A DNA stretch of 64,000 nucleotides from a virus. Shown one piece after another: positions 1,347 to 36,212 of the stretch (positions are counted from its first letter, which is position 1; each line of letters starts with the position of its first letter). The notes below the pieces were generated by a model. It had not been told where the DNA came from. It saw nothing but the letters and a program-made list of their open reading frames with translations, and ran no database searches. A program made the translations under genes and the position numbers. The stretch spans positions 32,001 through 96,000 of the IMG/VR virus record IMGVR_UViG_3300008255_000111; one strand, 5' to 3'.

Positions 1347-2135
1347 TTACACTAAGAGGCTTTTAGCGCGCTTGAGTAGCGAAGCGGCGATTTTGGCGTT
1401 AAGCGCCTCGTCGCTGCGCTTCTGCGCTGCTTTGATGTCCTCGGTTGGGTTAGCGCGCTGTTGGATGATTCTATGGGCACCTTCTAGGTATAGGATCGAC
1501 TCGTGTAATGAGGTAGTGATGCACGCCCTGCTTAGCGTGTAGAAGTCTCTATGGCGATCTAAGAAGATCGCGAGAGGATCTTGATCTGCGTTGCCTGTAA
1601 TGGCGAGCTTAAGTTTAAGCGCGTCTAACTCCCTACTCAGCGCGCTGACGCTCATTTTGCGAGCTAAGCAGTCTTCTTGAGCTTGAAGCGCAACTGAGAT
1701 GAGCTGCTTAAGCTCCTCGTGGGCGTTCCTGTCCTCGTGAGTGAGATGCCCTTCGACTAGGCGCTTACTATTGAAAAGGCTGGGGTCGTCCCATTTGGCC
1801 TCGAAGACTTCGCGGCGCTGCTCGAAGATCGCTCTATGGAGCGATAGGTTGCTAAACTCGTAGCACTTGATGAGCTGGTCGCCTAAAGGAAGGTAGGCGT
1901 TGAGCGCCTTACTAGATGGCGTGTTGTTAAACTTAAGATGCCCGTAGGCCCTCTTGATGTTTGGCGTCTTATGCTCGTCCCAGAAGAATGGGATGTCCCC
2001 TTCTGCGAACCTCTGCTTGAGGTAGTGCAAAACTGGCTGAGCGAGTTCTGGCCTCTGGAGCTTGAGCGCGTTGATAAGGTCTTCGTTGCTGCTCTTGGGG
2101 TTGTGGCATGTGCTTCTAAGCTCTGAAAATGACAT
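1347..2135 (-). CDS. FGxxRS-motif protein, paralog of 9310..10071
   Basis: N-terminus MSFSELRS; shared blocks DIPFFW, RREVFEAK, ISVALQAQE. Confidence 0.85.
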   Translation of the reverse strand: MSFSELRSTCHNPKSSNEDLINALKLQRPELAQPVLHYLKQRFAEGDIPFFWDEHKTPNIKRAYGHLKFNNTPSSKALNAYLPLGDQLIKCYEFSNLSLHRAIFEQRREVFEAKWDDPSLFNSKRLVEGHLTHEDRNAHEELKQLISVALQAQEDCLARKMSVSALSRELDALKLKLAITGNADQDPLAIFLDRHRDFYTLSRACITTSLHESILYLEGAHRIIQQRANPTEDIKAAQKRSDEALNAKIAASLLKRAKSLLV

Positions 2136-2200
2136 TTTGCCGCTCGTGTTTGAAGGTTGGGTTAAAGGGCGTTGCAGCGGGTTGGGCTGCTGTTGATTTA

Positions 2201-2228
2201 AGTCTGGATTGAACTAGCCTGAGCGCAA
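2201..2228 (-). promoter_or_regulatory. phage promoter family, TTGCGC-N16-CAGACT
   Basis: CTAGT at spacer positions 6-10; upstream ATCAAAAAACAC tract. Confidence 0.65.
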
Positions 2229-2426
2229 GTGTTTTTTGATATTGGATGCGTTTTTTATTAGCGTTTAACTAGCTTTAACTGAGCTTTGCGTGAGCTGTTT
2301 GATAGTTGAGTGGCGATGATTGAGCTGGAAGCCTGACTAGCGTTTTACTAGAGCTTTGCATGTTGTGTTGTGGGCGGCAGCGCACCTTACTTTATACTTT
2401 ATAACTTAAGATGCGCTGCGAGAAGC

Positions 2427-3671
2427 CTACTTGGTGGAGTAGCGCTTGCCTGTCGTGACGATGTAGCGATCGTGGTTGTCCTCATCTGACTCGGCGCGCT
2501 TCATCTTCTCGACCTCAATGTGGCTCAGGTCAACGTGTCCCCAGGTGCAAAGCACGTTCCCCATGTGCTCGCCCAGGGTGTTGATAAGGTGCCTGATATG
2601 GGAGGCGAGCCCTTCGACATCCACGCGGTCGCCGTAGAACAGCCTGGAGGTGTGGTTGTAGCCAAGCTCGATGAGCAGCTTGTCGATCCCGGCCCGCGTG
2701 GCCTCATCTAGCTCAAGCTCACCGACTAGGGCGCTGTCCCTTTTCATCAGCTTCACGGCATGAAGTGCGTCGTCAACTGCCGCCTTGATGCTCGCGTTCG
2801 CATCGAGCATGTTAGGTGCCAATGCACCAGCGCGACGATAGTGGTTGCTCTCTCCCACGATCGTAAAAGGCAGCTCATGAGAGCTGATGCCATTAAGCGC
2901 ATCGACGACATGCTCGATCAGGCATCGCGCCAGGATGAAGTCTTGAGGCACAGCGATTCCAAGGTAGTCATCCCCTGGATCAAGCAGCTTATATTGAAGC
3001 GCGAGCGCTTCTAGCGCTTCCAGCGTGCTCGCATCCTCGAACGATTCGTCCCAATACTCGTCAAGGTTGCTGAAGCCCTGATCTTGCTCGCGCAAGATCG
3101 CTCGGACCTTCTCGATGGCTCGGGGTAGACCGTCATCGGGGTAGAGGTCATCTACCTCGGCGGACCGTGCATTGTAGTACAACTCGCGCCAGTGCTTGAC
3201 CAGCCTTGCGTCGCGTTTGTCCTTGGGATCTTCGGGCTCCTCGGCGGCGCTGATCATCTCTTTGAAGCGCTCAAGCAAGTCCTTGATCCAACGATCATAA
3301 AGGTCTTGCTGCGCTAGCTTTAAGTCCTGCTTAGGAGGGCGGCGTGTGGCTCTGATGAGGTTATCGATAAAGGTCACATCGTCCTGCTGCCTAAGCGCCT
3401 TGATCTGGCGAATGAAGGTGCTGTCACCCCTTGGGGAGAACTCATAGCTGCGCTTAATGGGCTCAGGCAGCTTGATCACTAAGGGTTGCTCCATGCCGAT
3501 GATGTAGACGCGCTCACCGTCCTGATGCGGATTCAGGCTCTTGATCAGTCGGATCGTGTGAGGGTTTCTATGGTCGGTGAAGGCGATCTTGATCTCATAC
3601 TCATCAAAGTGGATCGCGCAGTTGTATCGACCAATGGTCTTGTGGGGCTCTTTGTTGAAGTGAAACTGCAT
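2427..3671 (-). CDS. hypothetical protein (~414 aa)
   Basis: Long ORF; start moved to ATG 3671 (MQFHF) because of the CAGGAG SD upstream. Confidence 0.8.
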   Translation of the reverse strand: MQFHFNKEPHKTIGRYNCAIHFDEYEIKIAFTDHRNPHTIRLIKSLNPHQDGERVYIIGMEQPLVIKLPEPIKRSYEFSPRGDSTFIRQIKALRQQDDVTFIDNLIRATRRPPKQDLKLAQQDLYDRWIKDLLERFKEMISAAEEPEDPKDKRDARLVKHWRELYYNARSAEVDDLYPDDGLPRAIEKVRAILREQDQGFSNLDEYWDESFEDASTLEALEALALQYKLLDPGDDYLGIAVPQDFILARCLIEHVVDALNGISSHELPFTIVGESNHYRRAGALAPNMLDANASIKAAVDDALHAVKLMKRDSALVGELELDEATRAGIDKLLIELGYNHTSRLFYGDRVDVEGLASHIRHLINTLGEHMGNVLCTWGHVDLSHIEVEKMKRAESDEDNHDRYIVTTGKRYSTK

Positions 3672-3709
3672 CTCGGGCTCTCCTGCGGGTTGAATAGGTG
3701 ACTTGGATG

Positions 3710-3735
3710 AATGACTGCAATCGATTGCAGTCATT
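3710..3735. repeat. CTGCAATCGATTGCAG palindrome (core 3715-3730), extended to 26 bp
   Basis: AATGA-core-TCATT. Confidence 0.95.
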
Positions 3736-3750
3736 GTCTCGACTTGAAGA

Positions 3751-4095
3751 TCAGCCGTGCTTGATAGGCTTGTCCGGGTTCGTGTAGGAGGTGATCTGCA
3801 CCAGCGCCTTGAAGTAGGGCTGCGATGTCGGCATAAACACCGCCAAATTAGCGATGCTCAGCATGTTAGTCGCCCAAGCGAGCATCACATCACGCCCTGG
3901 GGTATCGCCAATCTTGACGTAGGGCGGCGAGAGGTAAAAACCAGTCGCCTCGCAGTTGGCAGGCTTGGGTACTTTAAGGTAGGCGGCGTAAACCAACTGA
4001 CCTTCCAAATGGCCGCGATAGATGCCGACCAAGCATCCATCAAAGTCATGGGTTTCCAAATGATCAAAGCCTTCAAAGTGTTCAGTATGGGACAT
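3751..4095 (-). CDS. hypothetical protein
   Basis: ORF; ATG at 4095 has a GGAG SD. Confidence 0.7.
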   Translation of the reverse strand: MSHTEHFEGFDHLETHDFDGCLVGIYRGHLEGQLVYAAYLKVPKPANCEATGFYLSPPYVKIGDTPGRDVMLAWATNMLSIANLAVFMPTSQPYFKALVQITSYTNPDKPIKHG

Positions 4096-4264
4096 AAGGG
4101 CTCCATTGAATTGAGCGCAAGGCGACCTGACACAACGGGCATCCATTGTGTCGGGTAGGTCTGCGGGTTATGACGTGCTGCGAGGGTTAGCTCGCCTTAC
4201 AAAAACAACTTAGGGCATACATCCTGGCGGCGCCAATGGTTTTTGCGCTCCGTTGGTGCGCCTT

Positions 4265-4672
4265 TCAAGAAGGGTTCTCAAGCGCGTCCAGCTCATCAAA
4301 GGTGGCCAACAAGCTGCGCGCGATGTGCCAGCCCATGTAGTAGCTACCCTCGGTGGCGGCGTAGTCCATGCCGTCGAGATTCTTACCTGCCCCTGCCACA
4401 ACGATCACGCCGATCATGTAGCCCCACATATAGGGATCGGAGATGTCTGGAAGCCAACCCCTGAGCTTCGATTTGTCTTCAACGTCTTCATTGAGATATG
4501 CCTGGACAGGGCCTTGCTTGAAGCTGAAGCCGCTTCGCATCACCAATGGACGTGACACCATGTTACAATGCTTGCGCACGAAGATCATGCCTTCCTTGGC
4601 CTCAAAGCGTGGATGCTCCATGAGCAGCTTGGCGATCTCAGCATTCTGGTCGTGGTCATAGAAAGTGGACAT
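4265..4672 (-). CDS. hypothetical protein
   Basis: 135 aa ORF with GGAG SD. Confidence 0.75.
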   Translation of the reverse strand: MSTFYDHDQNAEIAKLLMEHPRFEAKEGMIFVRKHCNMVSRPLVMRSGFSFKQGPVQAYLNEDVEDKSKLRGWLPDISDPYMWGYMIGVIVVAGAGKNLDGMDYAATEGSYYMGWHIARSLLATFDELDALENPS

Positions 4673-4733
4673 AAAGGCTCCAGTGAGACTGGCGCGATTC
4701 TTCGCGCCATAGAGTGAGAGGGGAAGGCCCGGC

Positions 4734-5657
4734 TTAAGCCAACATGCCTTGGGGTGGATCTAGGCTTTTCTGCTCCAGGCGTGCGAGGTGTTTCTGCGTG
4801 GCAATGGCCCTGACTTCTGGTTCTGCGTTCTCAGCGCCGTAGAGCCGATGCACGCATTCTTCTACATTCCTGAAGTCTTCCATGATGATTTTTCCACGAT
4901 ACAGCACCTCGCGAGGGTGCCCGTTTTCTTGGCGGTTCAGGTTGGTCCTGAAGTACGTCGGGTCATTAATGCACTGGTAGAGATCGTCAAGACAATCAAA
5001 GCAGTGGTCCATGCTCGTCTTATAGGTGAGCAGCGGCAGCAGCGGCCAGCCTTTCGCCACAAGCGGGAGCCGGACAAAGTAAGGCGTCATCATCACGTCA
5101 TACGAGCGCTTGGAGCGGCTCATCGATTGCGTGAACGTATAATAGGTAGGACGGGGAGGCGCCTTGCTCTCGACGAGCGCCCTATTCATCATGATCAGAT
5201 CCTGAATCAAAGGCTCAGGATGGCGACGATCGCGAATCATCCACGCGAGGCAGCCATCGCCCCGACCTGGGAGCCCGCTGGCAAACATCTGGCCAAAGAG
5301 CGCCTTGTGCTCGTAGACCATGCTAAAGCTCATGGTGGAGTTGGGCATGTCGATGTAAGTGACTTTGCGATTGACCTTGGCCTTGATCACAAGGCCAAAG
5401 GTCGGCTTAAGGATCATCTGAAAGAGGTAGACTTTAGGCACCTTGGGCAGCATGAGCCCGCTCTTTTTGTCGAGCCATTCAGAGATCCTGGGGATGTAGG
5501 GCTTGACGTAGGCCCGCGCTGACTCAAAGTCAACGCCAAGCGCCTCCTGATCGTGGAGGTCGATCCCATAGAGTTCTAGGCTTGGTTTGTTACAGAAGGC
5601 GCGCAGATCACCGAACGTAAAGCGGCGACCTTCAACGGGCAGTTGAGGGATGGGCAT
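4734..5657 (-). CDS. FGxxRS-motif protein
   Basis: ..RRFTFGDLRAFCN..; SD CAGGAG. Confidence 0.85.
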   Translation of the reverse strand: MPIPQLPVEGRRFTFGDLRAFCNKPSLELYGIDLHDQEALGVDFESARAYVKPYIPRISEWLDKKSGLMLPKVPKVYLFQMILKPTFGLVIKAKVNRKVTYIDMPNSTMSFSMVYEHKALFGQMFASGLPGRGDGCLAWMIRDRRHPEPLIQDLIMMNRALVESKAPPRPTYYTFTQSMSRSKRSYDVMMTPYFVRLPLVAKGWPLLPLLTYKTSMDHCFDCLDDLYQCINDPTYFRTNLNRQENGHPREVLYRGKIIMEDFRNVEECVHRLYGAENAEPEVRAIATQKHLARLEQKSLDPPQGMLA

Positions 5658-5705
5658 GACTTGCTCCTGCGGGAAAGTCGGGTTTGGGATGACGAGAAGT
5701 TCGGG

Positions 5706-5731
5706 CTTAGCTGCAATCTATTGCAGCTAAG
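5706..5731. repeat. palindrome variant CTGCAATCTATTGCAG (core 5711-5726)
   Basis: CTTAG-core-CTAAG; mismatch lies in the central 4 nt. Confidence 0.9.
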
Positions 5732-5807
5732 TCGACTAGAAGGTTAAAGAGCGCCCAGCTCACGCTCGATCTCAGCCAAGGTCGAAGCTTTCCATGCTTA
5801 CAAGACA

Positions 5808-5835
5808 ACTATGAAGCGCACTAACCAAGCGTCAA
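5808..5835 (-). promoter_or_regulatory. promoter family, TTGACG-N16-CATAGT
   Basis: TTAGT at spacer positions 6-10. Confidence 0.65.
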
Positions 5836-5838
5836 ACC

Positions 5839-6771
5839 TTAAGTGCTGCTCGATGGTGCTTTATCAAAATAAGAGGCGATCAGCTCTTTGACCTCAAGGA
5901 TATACCGCTCAAGATCGGCCTCATCACTCGAAGGCTTTAAGAGCCGGGGGAGGCATTCACCTGTCACCACGTCGATCACCCAGACATACTCGGGGTGATA
6001 GGAGTCGAAGAACAGGCGGTCGCAGACCAGCCATCCGTTGCGCCCATGATAGTCATAGGGATCGTTGCTGAGCATGACCACAGGCAGCGCACTATCATGG
6101 GGCCGCGCCAAGTTGACAGCGCTCGCGATCGTCATCCTGTTTGGCTTCTTCAGCTTCGGATGGACAGGCATCTTCGAGTAGTCAAAGCCATGATCCATCT
6201 TCTTGATGTAGCAAGGCAGGGGCTCTAAGACCCCTTTAGCTCTGCGCACGTCAAGCACGAACCAGCCGTTATTATGCAAGATCAAGCGCGTCGCAGCGTA
6301 GAACAGGCGCTTCTGCCCTTCTGCGCTCATGATGAGCCACTGCTTCTTTGCCTCGGTGAGCCCGCCAAGCACCTTGAGCTTGCGCGTGCGCGGCGTCACT
6401 GGCGCATAGGTGTCAACTCCCAGCACATAGTCAAAGAAGTCCCTATGCGCCTCGGTGTTAGGTACGACGCCTGAACAGAAGACATCCACGAAGCGCTCGG
6501 TCAGCGGCAGCACGTCACCTGGGCGACCGTATCGAAGGAACACTCCCATGCTCGAATCTCTAGCGGGCAGCTCGACCCTGAACTCAGTCAGCTTGAGCAG
6601 ATCCGCTTCGATGCGATCTCCCTGGCGCTCAATCGGCTCAGGAGGCTCGCTTGGGTTCATCCCCATTGAGACTAGGTAATGCGAGAGCAGCTTGTCTGAG
6701 CGCCCTTCTAAGATGTAGCTGAGCGCAGTTGTGATCCGCTGCGCGTTGTAGATGTTCTTATCCTTCTTCAA
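5839..6771 (-). CDS. hypothetical protein
   Basis: 310 aa ORF in a coupled run. Confidence 0.8.
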   Translation of the reverse strand: MKKDKNIYNAQRITTALSYILEGRSDKLLSHYLVSMGMNPSEPPEPIERQGDRIEADLLKLTEFRVELPARDSSMGVFLRYGRPGDVLPLTERFVDVFCSGVVPNTEAHRDFFDYVLGVDTYAPVTPRTRKLKVLGGLTEAKKQWLIMSAEGQKRLFYAATRLILHNNGWFVLDVRRAKGVLEPLPCYIKKMDHGFDYSKMPVHPKLKKPNRMTIASAVNLARPHDSALPVVMLSNDPYDYHGRNGWLVCDRLFFDSYHPEYVWVIDVVTGECLPRLLKPSSDEADLERYILEVKELIASYFDKAPSSST

Positions 6772-8288: not shown

Positions 8289-8375
8289 TTGGAAGCGACT
8301 TGTTTGGTTTGGCAGCGGGCTAGCTGCTCATGTTTAGACTTTAACGCTCCTCCAACTGATGAAAAGCAAAAAAGC

Positions 8376-8392
8376 ACGCTGATGGTGCTTTT
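8376..8392 (-). promoter_or_regulatory. 17-bp motif AAAAGCACCATCAGCGT, copy 2 of 3
   Basis: Lies between the hairpin at ~8400-8431 and a TAAAGT -10-like box. Confidence 0.7.
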
Positions 8393-8433
8393 TTCAAAAG
8401 AGCGAGGCGGGCTCTTAGGCCCGCCTCGCTCGA

Positions 8434-9309: not shown

Positions 9310-10071
9310 TTATAGCGCAGCAAGCATCGCTGCTGCAAGGCGATCGGAGTATTCCTGATGCGCTGCGCGAAGTTTACGCGCGTCCTTCTCGCCGCTTGTT
9401 TCGGGGTGCAGGGCTTGCGCATAGCGAGAGCACGCTGTGCTCAAGTCCATATCCAAGACGAAGATGATCACCGCGTGGAATGGCCACAGTTGAGGCTCCT
9501 CAAACGCTCTGGCAGGATCAAACCCAAGATCGTAAAGCCGCTCGAACACCTCGTTGAGAGAAGCATTCTTAGCCTCAACGCTCTCCAGCGAGCCCGTGCC
9601 GCTCACAAATGCTTCCTGGGCATCAAGCGCCGCACTGACCGCTTGAATCGTCTCAGCGCGCAGTTGAGCGCCGATTTCGCCATCTTGCCAGTGATGGAGC
9701 CAGGACGACGATTTACTGATCTTGGCGGCGACGACCTCGCGCTTCATTTTGACCACCTCGGCGCTCATCAAAGCAACAGCGTTGGGCACATCAAAAAGGT
9801 CGAACAAATTACCACCAATGTTGAGCGCGCCTTTGATGCTGGGCATATTACAGGCCGGAGCGAGAGGGTAGCCGCTGATGGCGTGCAGCAACCTTTGGTC
9901 ACTGCATTTGCCAACCCACTTGAATGGCAGATCGGTCAATCCAAGGCTCTTAAAACTCGTGACGTAATCACGAGCAATCTCTCCAGGGCCGTTAAAGCAC
10001 TGGAGCGCGTGCCGCAGGCTTTCCATGCAGCCAACTTGACACGAGGATCGGATGTCTCCAAAGCCTTCCAT
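9310..10071 (-). CDS. FGxxRS-motif protein, paralog of 1347..2135
   Basis: MEGFGDIRS; DLPFKW, KREVVAAK, VSAALDAQE. Confidence 0.85.
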   Translation of the reverse strand: MEGFGDIRSSCQVGCMESLRHALQCFNGPGEIARDYVTSFKSLGLTDLPFKWVGKCSDQRLLHAISGYPLAPACNMPSIKGALNIGGNLFDLFDVPNAVALMSAEVVKMKREVVAAKISKSSSWLHHWQDGEIGAQLRAETIQAVSAALDAQEAFVSGTGSLESVEAKNASLNEVFERLYDLGFDPARAFEEPQLWPFHAVIIFVLDMDLSTACSRYAQALHPETSGEKDARKLRAAHQEYSDRLAAAMLAAL

Positions 10072-10690: not shown

Positions 10691-11176
10691 CTAAGCTCGG
10701 TGCGAGTTGAGCCTTGAGGCGATCATGTCGAGTTCGGCGGTGCTTTTCCAGCCGCAGACGCACACCACCCTGAAGGGCGTGTTCATCACGCCCCTTAAGC
10801 TACCAAAGAAGTCTGCGCCCGAAAACTCTTTAAAGACCATGCCGTTGAGGTCGGGAAGCTGCTCAAGGCCAGTGAGCCTCAAAGACTCGCCAGGGTACTG
10901 CTTGTCGCGCCCGAGGAAGTTGACCAGTGTGAGCAGCACTTGCTTCCCATCGACAGGGAAGTAGTAGCTGTCACCTGAGCCCGCATCGACTTTGGCGAGC
11001 ACGATTTGGGGCAGGGGCAGCCCCAGAAGCATCGACTCGATCAGAAGGCTTTGGGCTGGGTCTTCCCAAGTCCTCGTGTTGAGGTTGACTTTGATTTTGC
11101 CCTTGGTGAGCTGCGATAAGATCGTCTGGACGGTCCAGTCCAGAGTCTCAAGGTAGATGTGGTTTGAGGCGGCCAT
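10691..11176 (-). CDS. standalone DUF262 (ParB/Srx-like fold) protein, degenerate
   Basis: W..QSLLIESMLLGLPLPQI..VDGKQVLLTL; the canonical DGQQR motif is altered. Confidence 0.75.
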   Translation of the reverse strand: MAASNHIYLETLDWTVQTILSQLTKGKIKVNLNTRTWEDPAQSLLIESMLLGLPLPQIVLAKVDAGSGDSYYFPVDGKQVLLTLVNFLGRDKQYPGESLRLTGLEQLPDLNGMVFKEFSGADFFGSLRGVMNTPFRVVCVCGWKSTAELDMIASRLNSHRA

Positions 11177-11563: not shown

Positions 11564-11591
11564 GTAGAGCTGCAATCGATTGCAGCTCTAC
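11564..11591. repeat. palindrome (core 11570-11585), extended to 28 bp
   Basis: GTAGAG-core-CTCTAC. Confidence 0.95.
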
Positions 11592-12149: not shown

Positions 12150-12533
12150 TCACTCATCATCAGCGTCGAGCCAACCTTCACCGCATGGTGATTGAACGAG
12201 GCCGGGCATGACCTTCAGCAGCTCGGGAGGGACAGGGCCGCGCTCATGGGCGAAGGCGCCTGCCTCGTTGATCATGATGTGGAGCTGCCATTGACAGACG
12301 ACCTCACCGAGCTTGAGCGCGCCTTTGTCCGTGCGCCTCACTCGCATCAAGCACATCGTCACCTCGGCGTCTACCTCCTCGGCAAACGCGCTGTCCAGCT
12401 TATCAGCAGCGTGATCCGCGCTCGCGTGCCAGCTCACGGCAGGGTCTTCATCAATAAAGATCGCATCATCGCCAAGCTGCGCGAAGCCCCAAAGCTCCTC
12501 AGAGCGCAGCTCGCTTAAGTATCCCATGAACAT
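12150..12533 (-). CDS. hypothetical acidic protein
   Basis: 127 aa ORF. Confidence 0.75.
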   Translation of the reverse strand: MFMGYLSELRSEELWGFAQLGDDAIFIDEDPAVSWHASADHAADKLDSAFAEEVDAEVTMCLMRVRRTDKGALKLGEVVCQWQLHIMINEAGAFAHERGPVPPELLKVMPGLVQSPCGEGWLDADDE

Positions 12534-12543
12534 GATGTTGTCC

Positions 12544-13269
12544 TTAGATCATTTGCCCGAGCAGCTTGTTTAGCGCTGCAACTAGGGCGGGGTCTTTGGG
12601 GGTTAGGTGGGCGTTTCCATTGGAGAACACTTTGATGCGCCAATGAGCGCTCTCGGACTGCCCGTCTCGCATCGCTTCTACCAGCGTCCCATCATCCCTA
12701 GTGCCAGGGATGGGCTGGCCTAAAGCCTGAGCCGTGATGGCGTCGATGTCGTGGAACAGAGCGACAATGTGCTCGCTCATGTAGCTCTCGCGGGCAACGC
12801 CAGGCAAGATCCACTTGTTTGGGAAGCTGGAGCCTCGGACGGCATCCTCTTTGGTCATGAGCCAGTACGCTCGCTTCAGCCTGTCTGCCAGCACATCGTC
12901 GAGTTGAGACTCGAAGTGCCTGAGCTGTTTGGCGATCGACTCAGCGCTGATTGCTTCAGGGTTCCTCGTGAAGCGCTGCTCGAAGGAGCGCAGACGCTCT
13001 CGATCAAGGAGGTCATCAAGCCCGCTCTCATTCATGACGCGCTGCCACAGTTGACGATCGACCATCGCGACGATGTGGGGCGTCACATGGTCTGCGCTGC
13101 TATATGTCCAGCGCAAGATGTTGTAGTCGAACACGATGCCATTTCGCCTAAGCTGAGCATCAAGATGATTGATCGCTTCTAACTGCTTGACGATAGCTGA
13201 GATCGCCGCGTTTCTATCATTGACGATCGTTGTGATCGCCGCTTGGCTCATTAAGCTCTGTTCCACCAT
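12544..13269 (-). CDS. DUF4942-like protein (standalone)
   Basis: VDRQLW..GL..LLD..; C-terminal IKVFSNGNAH..LVAALNKLL; AAGGAG SD before ATG 13269. Confidence 0.7.
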   Translation of the reverse strand: MVEQSLMSQAAITTIVNDRNAAISAIVKQLEAINHLDAQLRRNGIVFDYNILRWTYSSADHVTPHIVAMVDRQLWQRVMNESGLDDLLDRERLRSFEQRFTRNPEAISAESIAKQLRHFESQLDDVLADRLKRAYWLMTKEDAVRGSSFPNKWILPGVARESYMSEHIVALFHDIDAITAQALGQPIPGTRDDGTLVEAMRDGQSESAHWRIKVFSNGNAHLTPKDPALVAALNKLLGQMI

Positions 13270-13383
13270 ATCGCCGCTCCTTAATTGAGGTTTTGGGGTG
13301 AAGCTCGTTTGCACACAAAGACTTTGATGAACAAGACCTCGTGTCAAACGTTTTTCTATTAAAAACAACGACATGGGTGTTTT

Positions 13384-14577
13384 TTACCTCAAATCCCAAA
13401 ACCTCATAGAGCGCGCCGCTATCTTAACTTTATCGTCAAGATGGTGAAGTATCGAAGGCGACAACTCGAAAAAACACTTGAGCACAGTGCGCAACAATTT
13501 CTCCTGCTCAGGATATATCGCGTGCCCAGGCCAACAGTTCAAATGAAGGTCGATGGTGTTAAAGACGGGAGAGCTGAGCCCGCCGCTTCGATCAGCGACA
13601 ACGTAGTCCACATAAAGCGACGACACCTCGATGTTAGGCTCCAGCCTCAAGTTATGGTCCCAGACCTCGGAGCACCCCAGCAGGCCCCATGAGTCTACGT
13701 CGGGCCAGCCTACTATATCGCGAACGAGCTTGTCGGCTGAAGCTGACCTGAGCTTGTGATAACGAGACGCCATGTAAGCCCTGATTGACTGGATGGGGCA
13801 GAGCGAACAAAGCGCCAGGATCGAGTACAGGTAGGCCCGCTCGTCGGAGCCTGCTCGCTCGTTTGTTCGGATGGCGTCCACGACGTTTTCTTGAGCGGTC
13901 TGACAGCCTTCAACGCGATCCTGAGCCTCATCGTTCACAACACAGAAAGAGCCGTTGGGGTTGATCGCCCACTCAACGGGATCGTCGCAGTCTACTGGTA
14001 CGGGATCAGTAGGGGCGCCGTCGCGCTGGATGGTGGGGCCAGCACTGTTGCCACCAAAGCCATGATTGAGACACAGGGTGAGCATTAAGTGCGACTGGAT
14101 GTCTCGCACGGTGAGCTGTTCAACGTAATGCCTGTTGGCGGTCTGATTCGGTTTATCATCGCCACGCCAGATGCTTTGTATCGCACGGCTCCTGATCTCA
14201 CCAAAAGAGTAAGCCGAAGTCTGACCGTAAAAGTGCTGACTAAAGCCATGAATGTCTGCATGAGCGTTCACGCTGCCGAAGGGGAACACCGACGAGTTGA
14301 GCGCGGCAGCGACCATTAACCAAAGGCGCGCCGCCTCGGTGTCGGTGAACTCCTTGTAGATGACCTTGTGGCGGCCCCTGTTACGGTAGCCTACCAGCCT
14401 GATGCGTCGCCTTGTCGCGGCATAGATGGTGCCGTCGAAGATGTCAGGCACCTCAAGGAAGACCTCGTTGTGCTCCGGCATGATGTATTCTGCGGCGGCT
14501 TGGTTGAGGTGCCAGCCATCAGGAAGCGGCTTCCTGTTTTCGATGGCTGACCTGATCTCTCCAAAGGTAGGGCTCAT
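13384..14577 (-). CDS. FGxxRS-motif protein carrying two copies of the motif
   Basis: MSPTFGEIRS and internal YSFGEIRS. Confidence 0.85.
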   Translation of the reverse strand: MSPTFGEIRSAIENRKPLPDGWHLNQAAAEYIMPEHNEVFLEVPDIFDGTIYAATRRRIRLVGYRNRGRHKVIYKEFTDTEAARLWLMVAAALNSSVFPFGSVNAHADIHGFSQHFYGQTSAYSFGEIRSRAIQSIWRGDDKPNQTANRHYVEQLTVRDIQSHLMLTLCLNHGFGGNSAGPTIQRDGAPTDPVPVDCDDPVEWAINPNGSFCVVNDEAQDRVEGCQTAQENVVDAIRTNERAGSDERAYLYSILALCSLCPIQSIRAYMASRYHKLRSASADKLVRDIVGWPDVDSWGLLGCSEVWDHNLRLEPNIEVSSLYVDYVVADRSGGLSSPVFNTIDLHLNCWPGHAIYPEQEKLLRTVLKCFFELSPSILHHLDDKVKIAARSMRFWDLR

Positions 14578-14924
14578 CGCTTTACCTTCTCTTGCCGCAC
14601 CAGCTCAGGGTGGCTCATCCTGAGCGCCACAATAAACTGAGGCACAGAGGTACGATCGGGGAGGCGCTTGACCTGACCGACCACCCAAGAGCGGTCCACG
14701 ACGTAATCTTCGTCATTCCACCTTGGACCCATCCTCATGGTGCTTTCGTACCAGTAGTAGAGCCGGACGATGGCCTCGTCTTCAGCTCCGCCATCGACCA
14801 CCTCTGCGCAGCACATCTCGCAGCCTGGAGAGCCAAGCACAAGGTTCAGCTCGAAGTCTATGTCTTCATTAGATCGCATGTCTAAGTCCTTATTGCAGGA
14901 AACTGTGAAGATATGGAAGCTCAC
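14574..14924 (-). CDS. hypothetical protein
   Basis: 116 aa; AAGGAG SD. Confidence 0.7.
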   Translation of the reverse strand: MSFHIFTVSCNKDLDMRSNEDIDFELNLVLGSPGCEMCCAEVVDGGAEDEAIVRLYYWYESTMRMGPRWNDEDYVVDRSWVVGQVKRLPDRTSVPQFIVALRMSHPELVRQEKVKR

Positions 14925-15084: not shown

Positions 15085-15951
15085 TCAGACGCCGCAAACG
15101 CCATCGCAGTCGTTATCGAGCCCGCCATCCCATTCAAACAGATCCGTCTGGGCAAGAGGGTTGTAGTCGCGCAGCGGCGTTCTGTTCCTCAAGACATAGG
15201 CGTGCGTCTCAAGGCCCGCGATCGGTTTGTCACCAGCTCGCAGCGCTTCGTCGAGAGCGACCGCCTTCGCCCAATCCTCGGGCACCTTGGCAACTTCTCG
15301 CCATTCGCCCTTGCTGTGGTAGGGGCAGTAAACGCAGCTCGACCTGATCGCTTGTATTGGTGAGCCGTCCAAGTACGTCAGCGACTCGATATAATTGGCG
15401 CAGTCGTGACGAGCCCAGCCCATATCTACAAGGGGGTAGGAGAAGCGGCGCCAGCTCTCATTAGACTCTCTAAGGCGCTGAAGCTCGTCGGTGCTCATCC
15501 CGTACCATTGGACGCAGCGCAGCTCCCACTTCTCCCCTTTAGGCGGACGACCATGTTTGAAGCGCTCCCTCGCCCAACGATCAAGAGGTTGGACCTTCCA
15601 GCGCTTTGTGCAGCCCCGATTGACGGGCACCGCGATCTGATTCTTGTCCTCGACAAAGACAGGCGGGAGATCGATCCCTGTTGTCTCCTGGGCGACTTGC
15701 TCAGCTAAGGTGCGCCAGTCCTTCCTGACGATGTAGAGCTTGAGGCCCGCGCTCGCCATCAGATCCGCCATCTTCCAGATGTGCTCGTAAGTCGCCAAGC
15801 GCTCGTCTCCAGTGTCCGCGAACACAAAGGCTTCGGGGAGCTGCCCGTTGGTGACAGACAGCAAGCGCTCGTCTTGGTTGGCGCATAGAAGCGCGATCGC
15901 TGTGCTCTGGACGCCGCCGCCCCAGCTCATATAAATCGGAACCCTATCCAT
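15085..15951 (-). CDS. PAPS-reductase-like / adenine nucleotide alpha-hydrolase family protein
   Basis: PP-loop SWGGGVQS, FADTGDE, CT..WK, SSCVYCPY, C-terminal CDGVC. Confidence 0.8.
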   Translation of the reverse strand: MDRVPIYMSWGGGVQSTAIALLCANQDERLLSVTNGQLPEAFVFADTGDERLATYEHIWKMADLMASAGLKLYIVRKDWRTLAEQVAQETTGIDLPPVFVEDKNQIAVPVNRGCTKRWKVQPLDRWARERFKHGRPPKGEKWELRCVQWYGMSTDELQRLRESNESWRRFSYPLVDMGWARHDCANYIESLTYLDGSPIQAIRSSCVYCPYHSKGEWREVAKVPEDWAKAVALDEALRAGDKPIAGLETHAYVLRNRTPLRDYNPLAQTDLFEWDGGLDNDCDGVCGV

Positions 15952-19698: not shown

Positions 19699-20209
19699 CG
19701 TTAAAGGTCATCTTGTCGATCTCTCTCATGCGCCTGTACTCCTCAAGCGCTTTCTTTCGGGCTGAGTAAGACACTCGGTCAAAGATCAGAATCCCCTGAA
19801 GGTGGTCGAACTCGTGCTGAGCGATGACCGCCTCAACGCCAGAAAGCCTGTGCTTGATCGGCTCCCCCTCGGGGGTAAACCCCTCCAAGGTGATCGACTT
19901 GTGGCGCCGGATGCTCAGCTCAACGCCAGGGATGCTCAGGCACCCCTCGGTCCCAACCCGCACACCATAGCGCGAGGTGATCGATGGATTGACCACCATC
20001 AACTCGCCGCCGCTGCCAGTGATGATGCGCATGACGAACATCGCCACGTTATGCCCCACCTGCGGAGCAGCGAGGCCCAGGCCGCCATTGTTGTGCATCA
20101 GCCCAACCATCTCAGAAGCGATCTGAGGCAGATCCAGCTCACCCGAGAAGTTCGCCTTGGCCACCTTGGTCTTCAAGATGTCGTTCGGGAACATGACAAG
20201 ATCCATCAC
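19688..20209 (-). CDS. def: peptide deformylase
   Basis: All three PDF motifs present: GLGLAAPQVG, EGCLS, QHEFDHLQG. Confidence 0.95.
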   Translation of the reverse strand: MMDLVMFPNDILKTKVAKANFSGELDLPQIASEMVGLMHNNGGLGLAAPQVGHNVAMFVMRIITGSGGELMVVNPSITSRYGVRVGTEGCLSIPGVELSIRRHKSITLEGFTPEGEPIKHRLSGVEAVIAQHEFDHLQGILIFDRVSYSARKKALEEYRRMREIDKMTFNDEV

Positions 20210-21059
20210 TTTCTCCTAAGCGCAAGAGATCAGCGCGCAAGCCATAGTAGCGCAGCTTGATCAGTTCATTGGTTTGACAGGGCAGTGACCAGCACAGCCA
20301 TGACTTAGACTTCCACGCCAACGACAAGAAGTCCAATGTCCCGCTCTTTTTTATTTTGCCATCCCAGAGCGCGACAAACGCGTCCACATGCTTGATCATC
20401 GCCCTATTTCGGACTGGTCCGGCTGACAGGTCAAGGTTGCCTTCCTCGTCTCTCCACTTGGCAGGGTGATCGATGGTGAGGATGCCCATCAGCTCGCCCC
20501 AGCGCTTTCCAAGAAGATCGGTCCCCTCGCAGGCCCCGTGGTGGAGGGTGCGCCAAAACCAAGGCGCCTCGCTCAGCGCACCATGCACCTCCTTATAGTC
20601 GGTCAGCGACCTTGAGCCGCTGATCGCTCCGTTCAATGGTGCGTGCCCATAAAGGCGACGCTCCACGAGCTGCGCGATGAGAAGGTTGAGCCACATCTTT
20701 GCTTGGACAGGCCCCGCCTCACTTGCCACAGACGCAAGCTCAGCGAGTACATGGCCATGACACGCCTTGGGCTCGCAGAAGCAGCCCAAGCGCTTATCAG
20801 CCAGCTCACCAACTTCTTGCCAGAGCTTCTCGCGCTGAAGGTGCCCCATGTAGAGCAAGATGCACAGCTCGCGATCCCCATCGCAGTCCTCAAGCCTGAA
20901 GGGGTTGGCCCATTTGTTAGGAGGCTCACCAGCTCGCGAGCGCCCTATGTACTGATCAAAGGGTTGCTTATGGTGAAGGTTCACAACAAAAGCGTGGGCA
21001 GCTTCCAACTGCCCACGCTTAAGCCCGTGATGACTCAGAAGATCATCCAGAAGGCTCAT
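20139..21059 (-). CDS. DUF4326 domain fused to a YspA/SLOG-like domain
   Basis: YIGR..KWANPF..LGCFCEPKACHGHVL, then ISGSR..HGACEGTD..AGPVRNRAM..WDG..SGT. Confidence 0.8.
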   Translation of the reverse strand: MSLLDDLLSHHGLKRGQLEAAHAFVVNLHHKQPFDQYIGRSRAGEPPNKWANPFRLEDCDGDRELCILLYMGHLQREKLWQEVGELADKRLGCFCEPKACHGHVLAELASVASEAGPVQAKMWLNLLIAQLVERRLYGHAPLNGAISGSRSLTDYKEVHGALSEAPWFWRTLHHGACEGTDLLGKRWGELMGILTIDHPAKWRDEEGNLDLSAGPVRNRAMIKHVDAFVALWDGKIKKSGTLDFLSLAWKSKSWLCWSLPCQTNELIKLRYYGLRADLLRLGESDGSCHVPERHLEDQGGQGELLG

Positions 21060-28304: not shown

Positions 28305-28320
28305 CTGCAATCGATTGCAG
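28305..28320. repeat. CTGCAATCGATTGCAG palindrome
   Basis: Perfect core, 15 bp upstream of the helicase ATG. Confidence 0.95.
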
Positions 28321-30716: not shown

Positions 30717-30728
30717 ATTCACCTCTCG

Positions 30729-31696: not shown

Positions 31697-32005
31697 CTAT
31701 AAAGGCTGCGGCTCCTCGGGCTCGTCAGGATGATGCCTATCCCATTCAAGCGCTAAGCGGCTGAGCGGGATCATGACCTTGTGAGGCATATCTGAGCGAA
31801 CGCCTACAACATAGAGCGTGCCCGCTTTACCTTCGCGCTTAATGTCGGAGGCCCTAAAGGTTACGTCGCCCCTAGACCACACTGAGCGCGCTAAGCGCTC
31901 CTCCTCTTTTTTACGCGACTTCATGCGCTCCATGCCGACTCGGCTGGAGAGCATAAGCGCTCCAAGCATCCCCATGTCAAAGGGTGGCGAATCTTGACCT
32001 CTCAT
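31697..32005 (-). CDS. hypothetical protein
   Basis: 102 aa; GAGGT SD. Confidence 0.65.
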   Translation of the reverse strand: MRGQDSPPFDMGMLGALMLSSRVGMERMKSRKKEEERLARSVWSRGDVTFRASDIKREGKAGTLYVVGVRSDMPHKVMIPLSRLALEWDRHHPDEPEEPQPL

Positions 32006-32016
32006 CGTTCACCTCA

Positions 32017-32051
32017 AAAGAAAGGCGGTAGCCCTTGGGGGCTACCGCCTT
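32017..32051 (-). terminator. rho-independent terminator
   Basis: AAGGCGGTAGCCC-TTGG-GGGCTACCGCCTT hairpin with A-rich flank. Confidence 0.75.
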
Positions 32052-32059
32052 GTTCATAT

Positions 32060-32287
32060 TCAAGCCTGGGGGCCTGACCTCCCAGACGCCATTAAAGATG
32101 CGACGTATCCTGCTTTTGTGCGCCACGTCGCCAAGCACACCTCACACTTCACTGACGAGTAGTCTGATGGTGTGCGGTGGTATCCGTTAAAGGCGGATCG
32201 GTTATGCTTAAAGCGAACCACGATCCAACGGCGCTGCTCTAAGGGTTTGGCTCGCTCATCGCAGCGACAGTAGACGCCGCCGCTCAT
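32060..32287 (-). CDS. small Cys-rich protein
   Basis: CRC..CEVC; coupled start. Confidence 0.6.
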   Translation of the reverse strand: MSGGVYCRCDERAKPLEQRRWIVVRFKHNRSAFNGYHRTPSDYSSVKCEVCLATWRTKAGYVASLMASGRSGPQA

Positions 32288-32709
32288 TCTTCTTCTTCTT
32301 CTTCTTCTGCTTCTTCTCTAAGCTCAGCCTCGATCTCAAACAAGCGCTCAGCCACCTCTTGGCCACACGTCTCATAACTCTCGCCTGGATCGAGCGACAT
32401 CTGAGGCGTGAACTTGTACTCGCGGTGGGCGAAGACAATATCACCATCATCATTGAGCTTAGCCCAGACCTCGGTTCCGCACGGCACTGGACCATCGACT
32501 TTGAAAGGCTTGAAGCCCTTCTCCATTAAACGACTTTCTTCTAGTGATGAGATCATCTCAACGTCCTCACTTGGGGTAGGCGCCCGAACAAGGTCAGGCA
32601 GGGTTGGGGGGGGACTATGCAAGGCCAACGTCAAGCATGATCTGCTTGACGACGCCTTTGAGCCATTCATCTGCCAGCTCACAGGCTTTGTCGATCGGCC
32701 CGTCATCAT
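32284..32709 (-). CDS. hypothetical protein with poly-Glu tail (true start probably further downstream)
   Basis: EAEEEEEEE tail. Confidence 0.55.
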   Translation of the reverse strand: MMTGRSTKPVSWQMNGSKASSSRSCLTLALHSPPPTLPDLVRAPTPSEDVEMISSLEESRLMEKGFKPFKVDGPVPCGTEVWAKLNDDGDIVFAHREYKFTPQMSLDPGESYETCGQEVAERLFEIEAELREEAEEEEEEE

Positions 32710-32896
32710 CCATGATCACTGTGCTCTGGATGGTGCCGCTCACCGTCTTCCAGTGAGCGCGCAGATGATACTGGTTTGAGTAGGGCTTTGTGACCCTTAT
32801 GATTGAGAGCCATTGACCAGCGTTGATCAAGCGACGTTCGGCGGGCTCTCTCAAGTCGCCTGTTTTGGTCCATCCAGCGGGCAGCTTATCAGCCAT
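32615..32896 (-). CDS. hypothetical protein
   Basis: 93 aa ORF. Confidence 0.65.
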   Translation of the reverse strand: MADKLPAGWTKTGDLREPAERRLINAGQWLSIIRVTKPYSNQYHLRAHWKTVSGTIQSTVIMDDDGPIDKACELADEWLKGVVKQIMLDVGLA

Positions 32897-32948
32897 GACA
32901 TTCTCGCTCTGGGGGCGCAGGGCGCTTTGTGCGCCCTGCTTTGTGGGA

Positions 32949-33704
32949 TTAGGCGTCGAGCACGACTAGGGCGGTGTTGACCTTGGTGCCGCTCTCTTTG
33001 AATGAGTCGGGAGGCAGCATGAGCGCGTCTCCATTCTCATTGATCAGGGCGCTAAGCTCAGCGTAAGCGCCTGTGGTCCTGAACAAGACCCCTGCGCTGG
33101 CCACTGAGATCAATCGCCCCCCTTCCTTCAGGAAGCGGCGGGCGTGCAAAATGTGCTTGGCGTCATGGCTTTTCGAGAAGGGCGGGTTCATGAAGATCAA
33201 ATCGAAGCCAGAGAACTCGTCGGGCTCGACTTCAAGGAAGTCAGCCTTGATCTGGAGGTCAGTGAGCGCGCTGCTGAGGTTGCACCTACCCTCGTCAACC
33301 TCGATGCCGACGATCGTGGCGTCTGGGCAAGCTGCGCGCAGAGCTTTGACCAAGGCTCCATCACCCGAGCTTGGCTCAAGCACATGGATACAACCTGCGC
33401 GCAGGCCATCGGGGATGGCGTTGATCATCTGGGCCTGGACCGCAGCGGGCGTCGGGAAGTAGCCCATATCCTGCCGGGTCGTGACTTCGCCCGTGTTGAA
33501 GACCGACTCCAGGGCGTCTGCGAGCGCTTCTGCGCTGTCAAACAGGTGCGCTTTGCGCGTCCTGTTCCATTTGCCGCCCATCGCTTCGATGACCTTGTTG
33601 AGCGCGAGGTAATCCTTGCGCTCAAGCTGCTCAGTGATCCTGAGCTGTGGGCCGATGACATTTCCGTTATTGAGCTGAGCGAGCTGTGCTTCTGTGACTT
33701 TCAT
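32949..33704 (-). CDS. amino-group (probably N6-adenine) DNA methyltransferase
   Basis: YFPTP, VLEPSSGDG (motif I), IFMNPPF (motif IV), FKESGT. Confidence 0.9.
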   Translation of the reverse strand: MKVTEAQLAQLNNGNVIGPQLRITEQLERKDYLALNKVIEAMGGKWNRTRKAHLFDSAEALADALESVFNTGEVTTRQDMGYFPTPAAVQAQMINAIPDGLRAGCIHVLEPSSGDGALVKALRAACPDATIVGIEVDEGRCNLSSALTDLQIKADFLEVEPDEFSGFDLIFMNPPFSKSHDAKHILHARRFLKEGGRLISVASAGVLFRTTGAYAELSALINENGDALMLPPDSFKESGTKVNTALVVLDA

Positions 33705-34043
33705 GCGGGTGTTCCTATCGGGTTGAGCCCTCCTTTATTTGGAGGGGTAAGGGGAGGTTTGGGCGGGGGCTGTGGTTTCTGGCGAAAGCAACCACAGCCC
33801 CCTGGCCGTTCATTTGCAACCAAGCAGCAAACCAAGTGGACCAACTTCGATGCTCACCGCCTGAACGGCGTACAAACGGAGCGCGGCGCATCTTGCAGCG
33901 GTTACAACGCCAACGCTGCTGGGCTTGTTTGATTCGGTTCGCGGGGTGCCGCTGACAAGAACAAGACTCGCAGCTACATCGCCAATGGCAAGAGAAAAAC
34001 AACTCACGTCGTCGTTTTTTTGCGAGACGTAAGACCTGTCATC

Positions 34044-35123
34044 TTAATCGGATGACTTCGCCCATTGGTCAATGCCTGTGTGGCCCATGAAATAGTTTCT
34101 GTACTCGTCCAGAAAGCATTGGTGGAACATCGGCTCGATCTCATCACAGATCGTCATCAACTCAGTAACATTGTCAGCGTTCGCAAAGCTGGCCAGGATT
34201 CGATCCTTGAACGTGATCGCACCCAAGATCATGTGGATCACTAGACAGTTCAAGAGGTCAGGGAAAGAGGGGGAGCGACTGCTGTTCAAATTCCTTAACA
34301 GGTTCGTCGCCTCGATCGAACGAGTGATCGAGAGGTCATCAGAAAAGAACAGATGGTGCTCCTTTGATTCAGGGAACGAGACTGAGTATGTCTGGAACAA
34401 GGCGAGCCTGTGGACACTTTCGTGTGAATTAAAGTCTGATGGAGGGTCAGGCAGCATCATGGTGAAGGTCGTATGGAGATCGCTATGTGTGGTCTGCCTC
34501 CAAATGGCTCGACTTGTAGCAGCAGCGCCCTTCTCATTGAACAGCAAGTTATTCAGCAGATTCAAAGCCTCTGGGTTGTCCTTTGCTCGCTCGCAAATGC
34601 GAACACTAAGCCTAAACAGCGCTGAGATCACCACATGAAGGAACGGCGCAAACTCAAAAGGACGCCGTACCTCGTGGATACGATTTACCACAGCCACCTT
34701 GGTGTCCATCGTTGTCGTAGAGTAGTTGCGCCTTTCGATCAGAAAGCCTTTCAAGGATTCGAGAAGACCCTCGCGGGCCGCCCTGCTCCAGAACAGCTCG
34801 ACAATCTCCACATTGGGAGCTTCTTGAAAGTCTCGCTGGTGACGATGCCACGCCAAGAAGTCATTGTTTCGGCGCCTGATGTGGTCAAAGTCACAAGGGC
34901 CACATTCATTGTTGCACACGAAGATGCCGTCAAAGCGCTGCTTTGCCAAAGCGCTTGAGCCGAAGATATAGTCGCGAAGCTCAGCTCCATACCCTGAGCT
35001 TTTGTCCATCGCATTGTCGATCAGGCGCGAAAGATCCCTCACGCCTTTATCCAAGACAAGCGGGTCGCTCTTACCCTTGAGGTTGGCGAGGATTGAGCGT
35101 GCTTCACCATAAAAGTCAGACAT
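34044..35123 (-). CDS. FGxxRS-motif protein (YGEARS variant)
   Basis: MSDFYGEARS..ELRDYIF. Confidence 0.85.
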   Translation of the reverse strand: MSDFYGEARSILANLKGKSDPLVLDKGVRDLSRLIDNAMDKSSGYGAELRDYIFGSSALAKQRFDGIFVCNNECGPCDFDHIRRRNNDFLAWHRHQRDFQEAPNVEIVELFWSRAAREGLLESLKGFLIERRNYSTTTMDTKVAVVNRIHEVRRPFEFAPFLHVVISALFRLSVRICERAKDNPEALNLLNNLLFNEKGAAATSRAIWRQTTHSDLHTTFTMMLPDPPSDFNSHESVHRLALFQTYSVSFPESKEHHLFFSDDLSITRSIEATNLLRNLNSSRSPSFPDLLNCLVIHMILGAITFKDRILASFANADNVTELMTICDEIEPMFHQCFLDEYRNYFMGHTGIDQWAKSSD

Positions 35124-35153
35124 GAGCTGGCCTTAAGTTGAAAAGGGGAGTCA

Positions 35154-35169
35154 CTGCAATCGATTGCAG
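35154..35169. repeat. CTGCAATCGATTGCAG palindrome
   Basis: Lies between the promoter at 35192-35219 and ATG 35123. Confidence 0.95.
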
Positions 35170-35191
35170 CCTCCAGTTAATGACAAGACAA

Positions 35192-35219
35192 ACCATACCC
35201 TTGACAAGCCAACGGTCAA
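35192..35219 (-). promoter_or_regulatory. promoter family, TTGACC-N16-TATGGT
   Basis: CTTGT at spacer positions 6-10. Confidence 0.65.
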
Positions 35220-35240
35220 CGCATTTGAGCGCGTCGTGCC

Positions 35241-36212
35241 TTAATAACACCTGCCGCAGTTGAAGACGTTGACCCTTTTGGGAACTGGGCGAACGAAACC
35301 CCTTAGTCGAGCATAAAACTCCTCTAAGAAGTGGTGGTGAAAGACGATGGGCGTCAACAAGCTGATCGCATTGAGAGTGAGCATGTTGGCATTTCCAATG
35401 TCAGTGACAATATCGGGATCGTAATGCCCTGGGACTTTTGCCAGCTCCCCTTTCAGGATAGAAGGCAGATCAACGGCTCTCTGGAGCACTTTTGACAATC
35501 CTGTAAACGGCAGGTTGCTCGGGTCAGCTTCTCCGTCAACATCCTGAACCTCTGGACGGTCCAAGTCATACAGAAGCTCAGATGGTGGCCGCTTATGCGA
35601 ATCAGCACGTTGAAACATCTCGGGGCGCGCCATGTAGTAGCTCAAAGCCCCATACACAAAGTACAGCCGTAGAGGCCAACGGTCGCGCCAGTCAGGAGGT
35701 AGATCGGCCTCGCGCCCTTTGAATATCTGCTCACTATAAGCATAGGCGTCATTGGCGATCTTGCGATCGATGCTTGAGCTGAGCTGATACATGGTCGCTT
35801 CAAGCACCTCGTGGAATGAGAGGTCGGCTGTCACGTTTCCAAGGAAGTCTGTAAGCGTCGCGCGCGTCTGCCTGTCCTCAACCATGTAGTAAAGACTAGA
35901 GCGCTCTCGCACATTAACTATCGAGTGTAGCATCCCTGGCCCCTGCAACAGCATCGAGCGGTGGCCTGGGCGATGAAGGTTGATCTGGCTGAGTAGGTCT
36001 TGCTTAAGCTGCCTGTGACTCGCCAAGAACGAGTAGATGGCTTCGACATCTGCCCCGCCTTTACTTTCAAGCATTCTGAGCTGAGCGTTAAGGTGCTCAT
36101 AGAGCATGGACAGGTTGCTCAAGTTCCGGCCTGCCGACACGATTTCATGTACGGTGGAGCGCACGTCACCGAACGTCACGACTGACATAAACATCTCCCT
36201 TGGTGATGCCAT
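35241..36212 (-). CDS. FGxxRS-motif protein
   Basis: ..MSVVTFGDVRST.. Confidence 0.85.
   Translation of the reverse strand: MASPREMFMSVVTFGDVRSTVHEIVSAGRNLSNLSMLYEHLNAQLRMLESKGGADVEAIYSFLASHRQLKQDLLSQINLHRPGHRSMLLQGPGMLHSIVNVRERSSLYYMVEDRQTRATLTDFLGNVTADLSFHEVLEATMYQLSSSIDRKIANDAYAYSEQIFKGREADLPPDWRDRWPLRLYFVYGALSYYMARPEMFQRADSHKRPPSELLYDLDRPEVQDVDGEADPSNLPFTGLSKVLQRAVDLPSILKGELAKVPGHYDPDIVTDIGNANMLTLNAISLLTPIVFHHHFLEEFYARLRGFVRPVPKRVNVFNCGRCY

Follow-up and report, generated by a model that had tools for sequence, protein, structure and literature searches.

A short N-terminal peptide shared by six otherwise largely dissimilar accessory proteins of an uncultured myovirus-like phage

Six genes of an uncultured tailed phage encode accessory proteins that have little in common apart from a short peptide near the N-terminus, described by the motif [FY][GS][DE]x-R-[SA]. 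Here we show that this peptide is held by selection on the protein. The genes are located in a stretch of 64,000 nucleotides (the window), which comprises bases 32001-96000 of one linear 104,952-bp IMG/VR contig (IMGVR_UViG_3300008255_000111) estimated to be about 81% complete. Positions refer to the window unless the contig is named, and the proteins are numbered 1 to 6 by position. We give about even weight to the reading that they form a fast-diverging, lineage-specific accessory family whose members all engage one shared partner through the N-terminal peptide that they have kept. The starting point was an original prediction, made from the sequence of the window, which had described the peptide as a modular targeting or docking signal on variable cargo, for example a tag for loading into the capsid or the tail lumen.

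The shared peptide and its six carriers

All six open reading frames named in the original prediction were found on the minus strand, and their translations agreed exactly with those it had quoted (Table 1). The encoded proteins are 253-397 amino acids (aa) long, within the 250-400 aa it had given. In a six-frame translation of the whole contig the motif matched 10 times, and 7 of these matches were located in the six proteins: 6 near an N-terminus and 1 internally, at residue 125 of the 397-aa member 4. Counted from starts backed by a ribosome-binding site, the motif begins between residues 3 and 6 in five of the six proteins and at residue 15 in member 2. The family consensus of the peptide reads (S/T)-F-G-(D/E)-hydrophobic-R-S.

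Enrichment of the motif at N-termini relative to shuffled proteins, which had been proposed as a check, was investigated with 129 crudely called genes and 2000 shuffles per protein. Six matches were found within the first 20 residues against 0.023 expected, a figure that should be read as an upper bound on the significance, the motif having been defined after the data had been seen. No shuffle gave more than one match. When the copies were described by a weight matrix, all seven scored 17.9-25.4 bits, against 12.6 bits for the best other match in a long open reading frame. An unbiased all-against-all comparison of the N-terminal 25-mers placed five of the six members in the only cluster with multiple members; single pair scores in this comparison did not exceed those of shuffles.

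Among the copies the invariant arginine is encoded by AGA, AGG, CGA and CGC, and the serine by AGC, TCA and TCC. Both codon families are used for either residue, and the constraint is therefore on the peptide and not on the RNA or DNA. We concluded that selection acts at the level of the protein to preserve the peptide. A nucleotide-level signal, such as a translational operator or a similar RNA signal, was ruled out by this switching between codon families. That five specified residues are kept while the rest of the sequence drifts points to a specific function of the peptide.

The position of the motif depends on the start codon that is assigned. In four of the genes the first ATG is backed by a ribosome-binding site. 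For member 2 an AGGAG 6 nt before the ATG fixes the start, and there is no alternative start between this ATG and the motif, which thus follows a 14-residue extension. The public protein for member 3 (238 aa) starts at Met16 and therefore lacks the motif. Translation from its first ATG, which has a strong AAAGGAG 6 nt before it, brings the motif back, and the public start is therefore probably in error. In member 6 it is the internal ATG at 36188 that is backed, by an AAGGGAG, and this ATG is likely the real start. The start of member 4 overlaps the stop of a 116-aa gene (14574-14924). Its two motif copies lie 120 residues apart, and no in-frame start with a ribosome site was detected before the internal copy.

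Table 1. Positions in the window of the six genes, the seven peptide copies and the leader elements.
Feature	Position	Strand	Remarks
Member 1, 262 aa	1347..2135	-	motif residues 3-8; paralogue of member 3
Member 2, 307 aa	4734..5657	-	motif residues 15-20 after 14-residue extension
Member 3, 253 aa	9310..10071	-	motif residues 4-9
Member 4, 397 aa	13384..14577	-	two motif copies: residues 5-10, 125-130
Member 5, 359 aa	34044..35123	-	motif residues 5-10; tandem neighbour of member 6
Member 6, 323 aa as longest open reading frame	35241..36212	-	motif residues 6-11 from ATG 36188
Motif copy F-S-E-L-R-S, member 1	2112..2129	-	
Motif copy F-G-D-L-R-A, member 2	5598..5615	-	
Motif copy F-G-D-I-R-S, member 3	10045..10062	-	
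Motif copy F-G-E-I-R-S, member 4 N-terminal	14548..14565	-	
Motif copy F-G-E-I-R-S, member 4 internal	14188..14205	-	
Motif copy Y-G-E-A-R-S, member 5	35094..35111	-	
Motif copy F-G-D-V-R-S, member 6	36156..36173	-	
16-bp palindrome (1 mismatch), member 2 leader	5711..5726		
16-bp palindrome, member 5 leader	35154..35169		
16-bp palindrome, member 6 leader	36228..36243		
Sigma-70-like site, member 5 leader	35219-35192	-	

Two further genes were considered as members and not counted, as they matched a relaxed form of the motif and fell outside the 40 best weight-matrix scores. The first, 12150-12533 (minus strand), carries L-S-E-L-R-S at residue 6 and is the last gene of the operon containing member 4. 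The second, at contig 103470-104258 (minus strand), carries L-D-E-V-R-S-C at residue 16. The top pair of N-terminal 8-mers in the whole proteome was a different one: the products of 20139-21059 and 61140-61985 (both minus strand), a 306-aa protein of no assigned function and a DNA methyltransferase of the tail module, both have S-H-H-G-L and score 37 compared to a shuffle maximum of 33. This pair may be due to chance.

Similarity beyond the peptide and database searches

Downstream of the peptide the proteins had been described as unrelated apart from one pair, and our pairwise comparisons bear this out. Only members 1 and 3 showed a significant similarity (BLASTP expect value (E) 3e-4, 28% identity over 162 aa; Smith-Waterman z 4.3), and they are most alike in their first ~52 residues. 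One further pair of protein cores reached a Smith-Waterman z of 2.9, and the other 13 of the 15 pairs scored like shuffles (z <=1.1). When the proteome was searched with a profile built on residues 1-70 of members 1 and 3, members 6, 2 and 4 were among the five best non-self matches, at marginal values (E 0.026-0.5).

A second element had also been reported, a helix with xY(I/V/L) some distance after the tag. We found it as (D/E/H/A)-Y-(I/V/L), 26-47 residues after the motif, in six of the seven modules, that is, in five of the six proteins and in the module of the internal copy; the protein of 35241-36212 lacks it. The offset is identical in members 1 and 2 (35 residues) and in both copies of member 4 (26 residues). 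The element is weak, however, and the same pattern occurs over the same range of positions in ~9% of all genes. Signs of duplication are seen at the level of the genes: members 5 and 6 lie side by side, and two copies of the motif are present in member 4. An internal duplication of member 4 extending beyond the peptide was considered and rejected, since its two copies share nothing further.

No match to any of the six proteins was found in Pfam, PHROGs, PADLOC or NCBIfam, and sequence searches of the PDB gave nothing below E 0.2. The large protein collections were queried with members 1 and 3 together, member 4 and member 5. A profile of members 1 and 3 (HMMER) run against 1.84 billion representatives retrieved only the window's own proteins. 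In a word-indexed search of 5.8 billion clusters nothing was found for member 4, and for member 5 only an identical 221-aa fragment was retrieved. This fragment corresponds to the C-terminal part of member 5 (34044-34709, minus strand) and is derived from a separate 1,379-bp contig, thus the phage or the gene has been assembled at least twice. Scans of viral contigs (with members 3 and 4 and a helicase of the phage) and of metagenome contigs (with members 1 and 3) gave no relatives, and conservation in the alignment of the N-terminal modules was too weak for scanning. The start of the peptide, F-x-x-x-R, led us to consider Bro-N and KilA-N domains as well, and neither PF02498 nor PF04383 matched the contig at E<=10. 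By these searches, in which members 2 and 6 were compared with the family databases and the PDB sequences, the family appears to be new, with nothing alike in the databases searched.

Structure models were examined as well. AlphaFold2 gave a predicted local distance difference test score (pLDDT) of 48 for the N-terminal 75 residues with an alignment of seven rows, and 33 for member 2 alone. Models from the ESM Atlas had pLDDT values of 0.40 and 0.30, with structural neighbours at chance level. All models were unusable, and a fold search or a superposition of the N-termini was therefore not meaningful.

Phage, gene neighbourhood and leader sequences

Nearly all genes of the contig are carried on the minus strand. 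The phage is an uncultured, myovirus-like tailed phage with a recognisable contractile-tail module, consisting of genes for the sheath, two tube-like proteins, a baseplate hub and baseplate wedge and J proteins; a gene of 1183 aa is assigned to the tape measure by its position in this module only. Other recognisable genes encode a Dda-like helicase, a clamp-like protein, an endolysin and a class II ribonucleotide reductase with two intein or homing-endonuclease insertions. The ribonucleotide reductase gene (37545-42887, minus strand, 1780 aa) contains an intein splicing domain with LAGLIDADG, a second homing-endonuclease domain and a C-terminal TSCPD domain. The Pfam models Phage_capsid, Terminase_6N and Peptidase_S78 had no match on the contig; this search did not include the T4-specific models (Gp23, S77). 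The contig ends next to the neck and sheath genes, and the head module is probably in the missing part of the genome, beyond the neck genes at the contig end.

The phage belongs to a lineage without near relatives. Megablast against INPHARED gave no match, the matches of baseplate J were at only ~23-26% and the closest sheath homologue among the 5.8 billion protein clusters was 34% identical. An analysis of conservation or of the ratio of nonsynonymous to synonymous substitutions (dN/dS) was for this reason not possible.

The six genes are separate units in the non-structural arm, all on the minus strand. G+C content at third codon positions is normal for the genome, so we regard them as native coding genes; three of them are among the six genes of lowest G+C, and member 5 has the lowest G+C of 98 genes. 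The six proteins have no transmembrane segment, hydrophobic segment or signal-like stretch and are predicted to be soluble. Their isoelectric points range from 5.4 to 9.0 with no common charge character. Among the neighbours are PAPS-reductase-like, GmrSD_N-like, ChaB, DUF3307 and N6-methyltransferase genes, and a DUF4942 methyltransferase-like gene is located immediately downstream of member 4. Genes of DNA-modification type occur at 10691-11176, 12544-13374, 15085-15951, 32949-33704 and 61140-61985, all on the minus strand; the types in this set are GmrSD_N-like, DUF4942 methyltransferase-like, PAPS-reductase-like, N6-methyltransferase and a DNA methyltransferase embedded in the tail module. 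Judged from these gene types, the phage appears to invest heavily in DNA modification or anti-restriction.

Three of the six genes had been described as having a palindrome directly in the leader. The palindrome was indeed found before members 2, 5 and 6, at distances of 54, 31 and 16 nt from their called starts. The perfect 16-bp palindrome CTGCAATCGATTGCAG is strongly over-represented (0.02 expected). With up to 2 mismatches allowed it has 17 sites in the window, for example at 11570-11585, 28305-28320 and 53005-53020, and 29 in the contig. Within 120 nt upstream it precedes 15 gene starts, often with complementary flanks specific to the copy. Besides the family it is found before 12 other genes, including the helicase gene (Fisher p 0.03), and the leader of the 116-aa gene upstream of member 4 has it too. 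A special link between family and palindrome was rejected, as the enrichment is weak and many other genes are also preceded by the palindrome. This distribution suggests a leader hairpin or operator that is used genome-wide and is not family-specific.

Several of the genes had further been credited with a promoter of their own, which was borne out only in part: a promoter-like motif precedes members 1 and 3 and a sigma-70-like site precedes member 5. A generic sigma-70 scan showed no enrichment, and its only match in the family was the one in the leader of member 5. Upstream of members 1 and 3 we found an A/T tract, the box CTTGCGC, a CTAGT-like block and an AGTCTT-like element 17 nt after the first box; for member 1 the sequence reads CTTGCGC-N17-AGACTT. 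This arrangement is also seen before the ribonucleotide reductase gene and a number of other non-structural genes. By manual tally 13 of the 30 copies of CTTGCGC on the minus strand are intergenic. Boxes on this strand start at 2229, 7499, 10174, 12095, 31643, 37431 and 42953 in the window, and there are more upstream copies outside it. A further box, AAAAGCACCATCAGCG, recurs upstream of several genes, among them at 8368-8394 (minus strand), before 567-857 and outside the window. The copy at 8394-8368 forms a hairpin of 10 bp with a run of T after it.

Origin and possible role of the peptide

The six genes most likely descend from one ancestor by duplication. Common descent would be the most economical origin because there is an alignable pair, a tandem pair, a member with two copies, a similar size throughout and a second weak element. 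The sequences would have diverged past recognition except for the N-terminal peptide and the weaker (D/E/H/A)-Y-(I/V/L) element, and the two copies in member 4 are as would be expected from a fusion of tandem duplicates. The peptide would then be the contact of all members with one partner, of the phage or of the host, and the variable bodies would do different jobs. A role in host takeover or counter-defence is likely rather than one in virion structure, because the genes are separate units of the non-structural arm interspersed with methyltransferase-, PAPS-reductase- and GmrSD_N-like genes.

Several points weigh against this reading. Common ancestry was demonstrated for only one of the 15 pairs, and no homologues of the members searched and no related contigs were found. 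Every structure model was unusable, and the peptide may be either exposed or packed on its own protein body. The timing of expression is deduced only from gene position and sequence motifs.

The modular docking signal of the original prediction fits the constraint at the protein level, the lack of downstream similarity in 13 of the 15 pairs and the presence of a second copy, while its more specific part, loading into the capsid or the tail lumen, found no support. The peptide does not need a free N-terminus, since one copy is internal and another follows 14 other residues. Common ancestry is no less likely as an origin than a portable tag carried by unrelated cargo, because of the alignable pair, the tandem neighbours and the second weak element that extends the similarity.

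The main rival, which we put at roughly one chance in four, is that the peptide is a structural relic: it would be the N-cap and hydrophobic staple of the first helix in a shared, inherited N-terminal fold, and no docking would be involved. In the low-confidence models a helix starts at the motif (residues 5-25 in member 3, 15-21 in member 2), and hydrophobic positions recur at i, i+3 and i+7. The second element, 26-47 residues further on, suggests a small N-terminal domain over a bare tag, and the similarity of members 1 and 3 is likewise greatest in this region. However, the start of a helix would seldom conserve five specified residues when the remainder of the fold has drifted out of recognition, the internal copy of member 4 has only the peptide in common with the first one, and the models are too poor to serve as evidence. 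Improbable, by our estimate, is a virion-loading tag that would attach the six proteins to the scaffold, the inner capsid surface or another part of the virion, so that they are packaged and injected with the DNA. A short N-terminal peptide common to otherwise dissimilar proteins would fit such a tag, and the setting among genes of anti-restriction type recalls the internal proteins of T4, counter-defence proteins with only a targeting sequence in common (PMC3012670). There is also precedent in DarB of phage P1, of which the N-terminal 30 residues suffice for capsid targeting (PMC9024508), and in encapsulin shells of the HK97 fold, to which short terminal peptides bind, an N-terminal motif of ferredoxins among them (PMC8346489). 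Against such loading, no head, scaffold or protease genes to which the peptide could be linked were detected on the contig, and inspection of the six N-termini showed no consistent cleavage motif, (L/I)-x-E or (S/A/G)-x-E, after the peptide. The genes are located in the non-structural arm, two of them with the promoter-like motif of the ribonucleotide reductase gene; the copies inside member 4 and 14 residues into member 2 do not suit an end tag, and the proteins are large and without common charge character. As for the tail lumen, it would already be filled by the product of the 1183-aa gene, if the assignment by position is right.

The remaining explanations are weaker. A turnover or processing signal, in the form of a degron or cleavage site for a protease of the host or the phage, which would give the six proteins a common, timed lifetime, is in our view very unlikely. 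Host AAA+ proteases read short N-terminal signals on phage proteins, and the N-terminal location as well as the conserved aromatic residue with a fixed basic residue after it would be in line with this. On the other hand, no match to a defined degron class was shown, the acidic residue two positions after the aromatic one is unfavourable for N-end-rule recognition, and the internal copy and the 14-residue offset speak against a signal that strictly depends on the chain end. Least credible of all is chance, or a signal in the nucleotide sequence (a translational operator or a downstream box) from which similar peptides arise only incidentally. The motif was defined post hoc and single N-terminal pair scores stayed within those of shuffles, but the number of N-terminal copies far exceeds that expected, a clean gap in score separates them from other open reading frames, and the nucleotides differ between codon families while the amino acids are kept. 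We regard this explanation as largely refuted.

Comparison with known systems

The reading that we prefer, a diverging accessory family with a retained contact peptide, falls among known kinds, being either a lineage-specific accessory family of phages or a shared terminal peptide on phage proteins. Lineage-specific paralogous families resemble it in that the genes are of similar size and on the same strand of the non-structural arm, with one homologous and one tandem pair, and in that no homologues were found outside the lineage for members 1 and 3, 4 and 5, which were searched. The difference is that in most pairs only an 8-residue peptide and a weak second element are left, which is unusually little. 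The capsid-targeting sequence of T4 is alike in being a short N-terminal peptide that alone is common to diverse phage accessory proteins, with the reservation that one pair is homologous here, and in its association with counter-defence, as T4 tags counter-defence proteins and the genes described here have neighbours of DNA-modification and anti-restriction type. In contrast to T4, the present peptide has no sequence resemblance to that of T4 and no cleavage motif of the protease type, the proteins exceed IPI-III greatly in size, one of the copies is internal, no head, scaffold or protease genes were detected on the ~81% complete contig, and the genes are scattered and not in one hyperplastic locus. 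In P1 a stretch of fewer than 30 N-terminal residues on the large anti-restriction protein DarB loads the capsid, so such signals exist outside T4 (PMC9024508); it was described for one protein, whereas the motif is found in six here, and there is no evident sequence relation between the two. Cargo-loading peptides of encapsulins are likewise short, conserved and terminal, occur on unrelated cargo and bind a pocket inside an HK97-fold shell, and N-terminal versions exist. Yet encapsulins are cellular nanocompartments, their peptides are usually C-terminal and of another consensus, and no shell gene was found here. As for the N-terminal cargo leaders by which extracellular contractile injection systems load the tube lumen, the tail module of this phage is of the normal myovirus type, and nothing ties the six genes to the tail.

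At present the family is a clean but small example of six proteins, backed by neither relatives nor structures. In practice it is of use mainly because it allows six orphan genes to be handled as a single functional set and marks one public start call as probably wrong. It is doubtful that an address label without sequence relation to that of T4 brings six different, large counter-defence proteins into the capsid in a myovirus lineage other than that of T4 for co-injection with the DNA; if this were true, sets of injected effectors could be recognised by their N-termini alone even in phages distant from T4. Should the peptide prove to be a true docking handle, it would mark a set of accessory proteins that are handled together, probably in counter-defence or host takeover, and would add to the phages in which short terminal peptides group unrelated proteins.

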